A stretch of 64,000 nt of DNA from Alphaproteobacteria bacterium (lineage in GTDB: Bacteria > Pseudomonadota > Alphaproteobacteria > CAAHEQ01 > UBA3637): NCBI GenBank assembly GCA_017559525.1, contig JAFYRI010000012.1, positions 15,164 to 79,163 of the forward strand, in the 5' to 3' direction. Position numbers and translations under genes: made by a program. Positions 60,625 through 61,737 of this stretch are shown here, piece by piece. The notes below the pieces were generated by a model. That model did no database searches and was not told the origin of the DNA. It worked only from the letters and a program-made list of their open reading frames with translations. How positions within the stretch are numbered: position 1 is the stretch's first letter; every line of letters starts with the position of its first letter.

Positions 60625-61737
60625 TTATTTACATAAAGCTAGACCAGCAGAATGAATGCTGTTCTTATTATAAGAGCGAATTGAATCATAACATGGATTT
60701 ATTGCTTTTTTTTGTTCAGATGTATCACCATTTGTTGATGTCCAAAATTCTAATGATAGTCCAGCGTTACACAATGCATTTTTTACTTCTTCTTTGTTTA
60801 GATCGTCAAGCGATTGCATTTCTTTATTGATGCGTTTGCAAGCATTTTCAGCATCCCACCAACTAACAAAAGTATTAGATATATACCATTTTTCCTCTAT
60901 TCCATTAATAATAATGTTTTTTCTGACAAAATCTAAAGGTACACACGCTCCGAATTCATTATTTGGAAACGCTTCTGTTTTGCTTGTATTCGGACTAGCA
61001 CAATATTCTGATTGTGAACATTTATCATTTGTTGTACATCCTGTAGGGATACATTCTCCCCACCAACAAAATCCAGCACCGTTATTACATGAAGAATTAT
61101 TAATAGATCCATAATAGCATCTATGTCCAGAATGACATCCACCACATTCTCCACATTCTGCTGCGGTATTGCATGTTTTACCTTCGTAACTGTAGATAGG
61201 TAAGCTTCCTTTAAAACACCATCCATTATCGCAATAGTTGTCCTCACCACAATCTGCATCTGTTTTACATTCAGGAAGAATAAAATTTGTTTCAAAGTAA
61301 AATTCCATGGTATTGTTATTAGATTCATCGCATGGATCTTTTTCGATATCTGATGTATAACTTTCGTTGCCAACATAAACTGTAACAATAGATTTTAGTC
61401 CATCACCTATTATTTTACAGACTTCGCTTGGAATGCCACTGAGATGAATTCCGTATTGTGTTTCATCATCTTGATTTGGAGCAATTTCAAAAGAGTAATC
61501 CATGGATGTTTTATTTCCCCATTCGGATAAATCGATAACTTCTCTACCTTGACTAATTTGTGTAATCATATCAATGCCGATTAACATTACATCATTAATT
61601 GTTTTGTTTGCGCGGTATTTATTCATGGCATAGCTATATCCTGTGATAGCTCCAACAGATAACACGCCGATAATCGCCAATGTACCCAACATTTCTGTCA
61701 TAGAGCGACCGGATTGTGATATTTTATTTTGTTTCAT
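60625..61737 (-). CDS. type IV pilin-like protein fused to Cys-rich modules and a C-type-lectin-like domain (paralog of 31034..32194)
   Basis: N-terminus SQSG/RSMTEMLGTLAIIGVLSVGAITGYSY. Cys-rich middle. C-terminus WWDAENAC...EFWTST...ALCK. Confidence 0.55.
   Translation of the reverse strand: MKQNKISQSGRSMTEMLGTLAIIGVLSVGAITGYSYAMNKYRANKTINDVMLIGIDMITQISQGREVIDLSEWGNKTSMDYSFEIAPNQDDETQYGIHLSGIPSEVCKIIGDGLKSIVTVYVGNESYTSDIEKDPCDESNNNTMEFYFETNFILPECKTDADCGEDNYCDNGWCFKGSLPIYSYEGKTCNTAAECGECGGCHSGHRCYYGSINNSSCNNGAGFCWWGECIPTGCTTNDKCSQSEYCASPNTSKTEAFPNNEFGACVPLDFVRKNIIINGIEEKWYISNTFVSWWDAENACKRINKEMQSLDDLNKEEVKNALCNAGLSLEFWTSTNGDTSEQKKAINPCYDSIRSYNKNSIHSAGLALCK

Follow-up and report, generated by a model that had tools for sequence, protein, structure and literature searches.

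We analyzed a gene on the minus strand of a 64,000-nucleotide stretch of contig JAFYRI010000012.1, from the genome of an Alphaproteobacteria bacterium (the whole stretch is called the window here). The gene lies at 60625..61737 and encodes a protein of 370 residues, which we refer to as the target. The target is identical to a protein from a metagenome-assembled genome (MAG) at NCBI, P0001, that carries the name 'type II secretion system protein [Alphaproteobacteria bacterium]'. The scaffold of this NCBI protein comes from a ruminant gastrointestinal metagenome, and the gene sits there between marC and the RNase J gene. No curated domain was found above threshold in the target. We found 252 homologs of the protein, and an alignment of 54 of them was the basis both of the conservation figures given below and of an AlphaFold2 (AF2) model, in which the numbering is that of the protein minus one because the first codon is absent from the reference. 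The mean predicted local distance difference test score (pLDDT) of the model was 81. The gene and its parts were delimited as follows.

60625..61737, minus strand: target gene, encoding a modular pilin-like protein (pilin module, Cys-knot spacer and C-type-lectin-like domain, CTLD); 370 residues, ATG start
61708..61737, minus strand: leader peptide, residues 1-10, MKQNKISQSG, ending in a Gly at position -1 that is invariant in the 54 homologs
61552..61707, minus strand: alpha-1 helix, residues 11-62, beginning with RSMTEMLGTLAIIGVLSVGAITGYSYAMNKYRANKTINDVML; the AF2 helix covers model residues 12-61, which are protein residues 13-62
61288..61551, minus strand: pilin head, residues 63-150, an antiparallel beta-sheet with invariant Cys107 and Cys136; the AF2 strands lie in model residues 81-146
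60952..61287, minus strand: Cys-rich spacer, residues 151-262, with 15 Cys in repeated knots of the C-x3-DC-x5-YC-x3-G-x-C type; recognized by Pfam matches in the family
60628..60951, minus strand: compact CTLD, residues 263-370 (about 108 residues); recognized by AF2, Foldseek and the family profile

The N-terminus of the target has the features by which a type IV pilin signal is recognized, namely a short hydrophilic leader, a Gly at -1 and a Glu at +5. Gly10, Ser12, Met13, Glu15 and a G-V-L-S core were invariant in 54 of 54 homologs. Glu15 is at +5 from Gly10, as in class III signal peptides, and the mature protein would start with RSMTE. In the AF2 model, an N-terminal helix of about 50 residues is followed by a four-strand sheet with interspersed helices (model residues 81-146), and the arrangement is that of the type IV pilin fold, a helix of about 50 residues on an antiparallel beta-sheet. 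The pLDDT was below 50 in the first 28 residues of the model and 74-92 beyond them. When the model was compared with the PDB using Foldseek, the pilin module matched the TcpA filament (8uhf, E 6.9e-4) and the type IVb pilus of enterotoxigenic Escherichia coli (9iuf, 7.6e-3), both with a probability of 1.0, and crystal or NMR structures of CofA, TcpA and PilS followed. The Pfam models of PilS (PF08805) and Bundlin (PF05307) did not match the target.

The middle part of the protein was modeled by AF2 as small disulfide-rich units. In the family, it was matched by the Pfam models DUF7107 (20 of the 54 members) and Dickkopf_N (7 of the 54), and its length ranged from 60 to 143 residues. In one homolog (L015, 3983..5041), most of it was swapped for a Thr/Glu repeat (ETETETKTETETEITETE...), which is followed by a single knot and the CTLD. 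Because this replacement matches the behavior of a spacer, we assigned a spacer role to the Cys-rich part. The middle part is thus variable and replaceable, which supports a modular build of the protein.

The C-terminal part was modeled as an alpha/beta domain that runs from model residue 262 to the end, with a pLDDT mostly above 90. Two helices are flanked by strands, and the N- and C-terminal strands are paired, as in the CTLD fold. Foldseek placed this domain in a second class of PDB matches, comprising the C-terminal domain of Lcl, intimin, Bd2740, NK receptors, collectins and Link modules. When a profile of the family was compared with all PDB chains, only CTLDs were matched, a result that was specific but weak: DEC-205 (8.1e-5) and DC-SIGN (1.3e-3), and further PLA2R, CD69, CD23, LYVE-1, intimin and FGE. 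These matches fell on the beta1-alpha1 segment, which bears a 'W-x-x-A-x-x-x-C' motif. In the CTLD alignment, C42 in alpha-1 and C111 in the last strand were invariant, and W74, the Trp at the WIGL position, was nearly invariant; these are the conserved Cys residues and the Trp by which CTLDs are known, and the two Cys would form the C1-C4 disulfide. Lectin_C (PF00059) did not match the target at E<=1 or any of the 54 members at E<=0.1, and DUF1566 (PF07603) did not match any of the 54 members. Neither an EPN/QPD nor a WND motif, which stand for Ca2+ and carbohydrate binding, was present in the target domain, and the sole 'QPD' was found in a paralog (paralog B, described below), where it precedes beta-1. 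To call the domain a 'lectin' is therefore too strong. The model and the sequence together indicate a compact CTLD that does not depend on Ca2+, a type also known from intimin, Lcl and Bd2740 (PMC10769870). The three-part architecture that the original prediction had described is backed by the AF2 model, by Foldseek and by the profile matches to CTLDs only.

We next turned to the relatives of the target inside the window. Two further genes encode the same pilin-type N-terminus.

31034..32194, plus strand: paralog B, 386 residues, with the same three-part architecture; it corresponds to P0078 (IKV03_05795); identified as an open reading frame (ORF) and by BLASTP
19795..20475, minus strand: a third gene with the same pilin-type N-terminus, 226 residues, 12 Cys and no CTLD; tblastn E 1e-16 to 1e-17

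The target and paralog B were aligned by BLASTP with 41% identity over residues 8-313 (E 5e-69), and the last 55 or so residues were left unaligned. Both ORFs are thus real and paralogous, as had been claimed. Over the first 60 residues, the two are 69% identical. Identity drops to 36% in both the pilin head and the Cys-rich part, reaches 48% in the first half of the C-terminal domain and is lowest, at 18%, over the final 55 residues. The claim that identity is high at the N-terminus and much lower further on therefore held, and the same gradient was seen in the 54 homologs, in which the mean pairwise identity by segment was 0.79, 0.68, 0.46, 0.39, 0.46, 0.29 and 0.27. The first two values belong to the two halves of the alpha-1 helix region and the last two to the distal CTLD, where the segments also vary greatly in length (8-58 residues). 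In canonical CTLDs, the distal half is the ligand-binding region. Of the motifs that had been quoted as common to the two genes, SWWDAENAC, EFWTST and LALCK are all in the target, but their counterparts in paralog B read SWWDAKSAC ... VW ... AVCK, so that EFWTST is missing from it and only the Trp is common. The third gene shares with the target and paralog B only its N-terminal 115-170 or so residues, as judged by tblastn of the window. Its C-terminus is different and Cys-rich, and its match to a PHROG 'pilin' was weak. The RNase P RNA gene (19408..19780, plus strand) converges on this gene, and its 3' end is separated from the stop codon by 14 nt.

The full-length paralogs in the MAG of the target number at least six (P0001, P0078, which is gene B, P0008, P0032, P0076 and P0089). 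Each of them stands alone among housekeeping genes, such as lpx genes, ruvC/rpmF, ribosomal protein genes and dnaK. Paralog B and P0008 have in common a promoter-like upstream stretch, AAAAAATTAACTTTTTT.TGCGATATTAAAAT (30925..31000 of the window; about 9880..9950 of locus L089), which is not present in the upstream region of the target. Beyond a ribosome-binding site, no common promoter was found upstream of the three window genes.

The family extends far beyond this organism. In GTDB representative genomes, at least 595 stretches encode the same N-terminus, nearly all of them in MAGs of uncultured gut Alphaproteobacteria (ruminants, rabbit, human), with several per genome. The proteins fall into sizes of about 190-250 residues (pilin-sized), 270-520 residues and 600-994 residues (with up to 96 Cys), and many of those of 270-520 residues end in a CTLD-type '...A-V-C-K/R'. 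An exhaustive search of 1.84 billion cluster representatives with the CTLD profile gave 592 matches at E<=1e-3 and 114 at E<=1e-10. The strong matches mostly carried a pilin-like N-terminus or else were fragments, so this CTLD subtype is essentially private to the pilin-headed proteins of the lineage. Other metagenomes contained giant proteins with the same N-terminus, of 4335 (P0245), 3034 (P0243), 2070 (P0252) and 1640 residues (P0256). These giants contain the CTLD in several to twelve copies, and their Cys number in the hundreds, with 463 in P0245. Pfam scans of two of the giants detected no domains. Two family members were also seen at locus L050, in a MAG labeled Candidatus Gastranaerophilales, a cyanobacterial-related gut lineage; a binning error or horizontal transfer could account for them.

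We then asked which machinery accompanies the family in related organisms, for which 80 loci were fetched. A gene for a PilB/GspE-type ATPase was located just upstream of a family member in 4 of the 80. At L075/L085, the order of genes was TcpQ-like, Secretin, PAP_PilO, a 446-residue protein, T2SSE, T2SSF, a 182-residue protein and a 215-residue pilin. This order is that of the type IVb thin-pilus operon of R64 and S. Typhi (pilN-O-P-Q-R-S). The 215-residue protein begins ...QSGRSMVEMLGVLAIIGVLS and was matched above the Pfam cut-offs by PilS (4.3e-13) and Bundlin (5.2e-11). The target is 43% identical to this operon-encoded pilin (L075) over the first 91 residues (E 8e-20), and this homology links the N-terminus of the family to a type IVb pilus operon. 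JGI names the T2SSE ATPase bfpD, and its conservation across very many gut Alphaproteobacteria amounts to 84-100%. One related MAG has, on the 16-kb contig JAZKXP010000003.1 (L015, L024), an ATPase (61% identical) and a platform protein (53% identical), together with a truncated family pilin and, 11 kb off, a member of the pilin-spacer-CTLD type. A gene of the TrbC/VirB2 type (type IV secretion pilin) was noticed at 2501..2854 of L085, where it precedes the type IVb pilus operon by about 2.5 kb. A look into the literature for pili of RF32-type gut Alphaproteobacteria yielded nothing of relevance.

Taken together, these data suggest that the target is probably a minor pilin of modular build that belongs to a type IVb-like pilus. 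In such a pilus, a prepilin peptidase would remove the 10-residue leader after Gly10, and the hydrophobic alpha-1 helix with its Glu at +5, together with the small beta-sheet head, would allow the protein to be inserted into the fiber. The pilus itself would consist mainly of a major pilin of the PilS/Bundlin type, about 215 residues long and with the same N-terminus. Because of its bulk, the target would most likely be placed at the pilus tip. The disulfide-knotted spacer may serve as a rigid, protease-resistant stalk, at the end of which the Ca2+-independent CTLD would bind a putative ligand, protein or glycan, on the host or on another microbe. Paralogs that have the N-terminus in common, with most of their differences in the distal CTLD half, would then provide one pilus machine with alternative adhesive tips.

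Several results weigh against this interpretation, and most of them would fit a protein that is anchored in the membrane or at least not polymerized, in which the N-terminus works as a signal-anchor or as an export or retention signal that is recognized by a machine of the type IV filament or type II secretion kind, and in which the Cys-knot stalk and the CTLD act in the periplasm or on the surface, outside any fiber. The curated pilin models were not passed: TIGR02532 gave 12.7 bits on the target, below its cut-off of 16.3, and PF07963 gave 10.6 on the paralog against a cut-off of 21.2 and did not match the target. The residue at +1 after the putative cleavage site is Arg, which is unusual for pilins. 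An A24 prepilin peptidase was seen in none of the fetched loci, as far as a motif scan and the Pfam lists of the neighbors go. The genes are solitary and far from any machinery; the pilus operon was found neither in the window (by eye) nor in about 84 kb around four paralogs of the same organism. It is also hard to picture relatives of 2000-4335 residues passing a secretin as pilus subunits; they resemble giant surface adhesins more than parts of a fiber. Against a mere envelope protein, however, the invariant spacing of Gly(-1) and Glu(+5) and the predicted pilin head with two conserved Cys exceed what an anchor needs, and the N-terminal 90 residues are homologous to a PilS/Bundlin pilin encoded in a pilus operon. 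We therefore consider the envelope protein unlikely. Much less likely still is a type II secretion pseudopilin in a periplasmic pseudopilus. The name that NCBI gives to P0001, and also to P0076, points that way, as do weak matches to the shared motif of N-terminal methylation and to a model of a prepilin peptidase-dependent protein. But the only machinery linked to the N-terminus of the family, with TcpQ, PAP_PilO, a bfpD-type ATPase and a PilS/Bundlin pilin, is a type IVb set and not a Gsp set. Moreover, pseudopilins are small and operon-encoded, whereas the target has an adhesin-like extension of 220 residues and is one of many dispersed paralogs.

A separate question is whether the paralogs are under diversifying selection on the CTLD surface, as the original prediction had proposed for the binding surface, or are even hypermutated in the manner of the CTLDs targeted by diversity-generating retroelements (DGRs), such as phage Mtd. 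The fall in identity from the N-terminus to the distal CTLD and the large length variation there would be in keeping with it, and Bd2740, structurally the closest relative, comes from a family whose tips are diversified and was likened to Mtd by its authors (PMC10769870). The ratio of nonsynonymous to synonymous substitutions (dN/dS) that had been recommended as a check was computed along the two paralogs by the Nei-Gojobori method and was uninformative: the proportion of synonymous differences (pS) was 0.50-0.78, and because synonymous sites are saturated, with dS undefined in one segment, dN/dS cannot be interpreted. In type IV pilins generally, a conserved N-terminal helix, which builds the filament core, is joined to a variable globular part. 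Because the constraint on the helix yields such a contrast in every pilin, the contrast in identity alone is no sign of positive selection. The closest other homologs of the target are only about 50% identical, too distant to make dN/dS readable. The 90%-identity cluster of the target is a single sequence, of which identical copies were recovered from four samples; both findings speak against ongoing hypervariation. A blastn search of the window with the CTLD-coding DNA of both paralogs returned the two sequences themselves, each other (75% over 45 nt) and chance-level matches of at most 19 nt. Neither a template repeat of the 3' end nor a reverse transcriptase-like ORF was found in the window, which rules out a DGR there. 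A shufflon was also rejected, as no extra or inverted copies of the 3' segment lie near either gene and the neighbors are housekeeping genes. Diversifying selection, which was thus not demonstrated, and hypermutation both seem doubtful to us.

The ends of the two full-length window genes were the subject of a further claim, that both finish in the same unusual terminator palindrome. Three terminator-like hairpins lie near them.

60592..60617, both strands: bidirectional terminator hairpin ATATCCCCCTCATCCGAGGGGGATAT, between the RNase J gene (plus strand) and the target gene (minus strand)
30892..30923, plus strand: hairpin upstream of paralog B, which terminates the ORF at 30117..30893
32204..32223, plus strand: hairpin downstream of paralog B, before the convergent TrpRS gene

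An exact 16-mer, CCCCTCATCCGAGGGG, occurs in three copies in the window (0 expected in shuffles), at 30900..30915, 32206..32221 and 60597..60612. All three score as terminator-like hairpins and flank the two pilin-CTLD paralogs, on both sides in the case of gene B, where the copy at 30900 is 110 nt upstream of the gene. All of them are oriented along the plus strand; seen in the direction of each gene, the loop of one paralog is therefore the inverse of the other's. The stem extensions outside CCCCTCATCCGAGGGG differ in bases between the copies. The palindrome is indeed common to both genes, but it is not a feature of the family; the third copy lies 5' of paralog B, and the copy at the target is placed between convergent genes. 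CCCCTCATCCGAGGGG was absent around four other paralogs of the same genome (4 x 21 kb, about 84 kb). It was also missing from 80 loci of other genomes; the terminators of family genes there are ordinary and different. The hairpin was therefore rejected as a family-wide or genome-wide element. Its association with exactly two pilin-CTLD genes is striking and cannot be a remnant of their old duplication. The obvious candidate origins are gene conversion and a small hairpin repeat that has spread recently.

The window has a G+C content of 35.4%, and its remainder is rich in housekeeping genes, which by eye include those for GlyRS, MurD, PepN, FabI, TrpRS, GyrA, SSB, ArgRS, DnaX, BirA and RNase J, and it also encodes RNase P RNA, SRP RNA and two tRNAs. 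A PADLOC scan gave no match and the PHROG matches were weak and uninformative, so a phage or defense origin of the target was rejected. Some other genes deserve mention. At 43399..44913 (plus strand), a 504-residue protein has a signal peptide and many Cys-rich repeats of the form 'CP.DKP....G.C..C', with no Pfam match; judging from these features, it is probably another secreted disulfide-rich protein. Two adjacent genes at 33467..34546 and 34693..35667 (both minus strand) appear by eye to encode similar secreted proteins of 359 and 324 residues, with strongly Arg/Lys-rich tails (…KKRRSLSSNRRRNRGR and …NPRRKRRGRRG). Four ORFs in a row at 506..3517 (plus strand), of 188-228 residues, resemble by eye paralogous acetyltransferases and have a 'WLD..…GKGYM.EA'-like motif in common. 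An 825-residue ORF at 6848..9325 (minus strand) contains a near-exact internal duplication, in which 'NAPSYIL.KDGNTFSDNTLSHDN' is present twice.

How does the target compare with known systems? A modular pilin is defined by a pilin module joined to at least one module whose fold is not specific to filaments, and this is the composition of the target. As a class, modular type IV pilins are established and highly diverse (PMC8179133). In Streptococcus sanguinis, PilB has a vWA module and PilC a ConA-like lectin module (PMC8179133, PMC9934059). Like these, the target has an N-terminal pilin module and a grafted C-terminal binding module that is presumed to be exposed at the tip. Unlike them, its modules are invisible to current signatures and are separated by a long disulfide-knot stalk, its pilin module is type IVb-like and occurs in a diderm, and its genes are dispersed in multiple copies outside a pil operon. 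A combination of a pilin with a C-type lectin-like domain (IPR012902-IPR001304) has already been listed for 3 proteins (Dataset S1 of PMC8179133). Thus, the target is most likely a new modular type IV pilin that signatures fail to detect, with an unusually neat plan of carrier, stalk and CTLD and a large lineage-specific family of paralogs. It belongs to a known class and is not a new kind of system.

In structure, the N-terminal 190 residues of the target are matched best by the type IVb major pilins TcpA, CofA, BfpA and PilS. By eye, the target and TcpA/CofA have the G-V-(V/L)-S-x-G core of alpha-1 in common. Leaders of type IVb pilins are long, whereas that of the target is short (10 residues), and the target has 220 extra residues. 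The type IVb thin pilus of the I-complex plasmids R64 and TP114 resembles that of the target's relatives in the pilN-O-P-Q-R-S order and in a PilS-type major pilin. PilV, the minor pilin adhesin of R64/TP114, is not known to have a CTLD. In PilV, a constant N-terminal part is joined to alternative C-terminal binding ends that set target specificity (PMC9045228). These variants arise from one gene by shufflon inversion with sfx sites and Rci, whereas the variants of the target are separate full-length chromosomal genes. As for the CTLD, the C-terminal domain of Bd2740, from the tip of a MAT fiber of Bdellovibrio bacteriovorus (PDB 8oks; PMC10769870), is 14% identical in sequence to the target domain and, unlike it, rides on a trimeric fiber and not on a pilin. 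The CTLDs of intimin/invasin (1f02) and Legionella Lcl (DUF1566, 8q4e) are carried by an Ig-like autotransporter stalk and a collagen-like stalk, respectively, whereas that of the target is carried by a pilin.

Extending the reading of the target as a minor pilin to the whole lineage, one could imagine a single chromosomal type IVb pilus machine served by a large dispersed repertoire of pilin-headed adhesins, a multi-gene equivalent of the PilV shufflon. This repertoire would run from pilins of about 200 residues via pilin-stalk-CTLD proteins of about 370 residues to the Cys-rich giants of 2000-4335 residues, and it would serve to switch adhesion targets, whether host mucosa or microbes as partner or prey. 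The 16-mer hairpins on either side of gene B might then be left over from a cassette-like mobility of these genes. We regard this wider scheme as speculative and rather improbable. If the target is the pilus subunit that we propose, it would be a concrete candidate adhesin of widespread uncultured Alphaproteobacteria in the gut of ruminants, rabbits and humans, and current signatures would be overlooking a whole lineage-specific family of modular pilins. With such a design, the 'grafted module' principle that makes pili versatile would reach type IVb pili and the CTLD fold as well, and the paralogs, which differ mainly in the distal CTLD, would offer a natural set of variants for changes of specificity on a CTLD surface.

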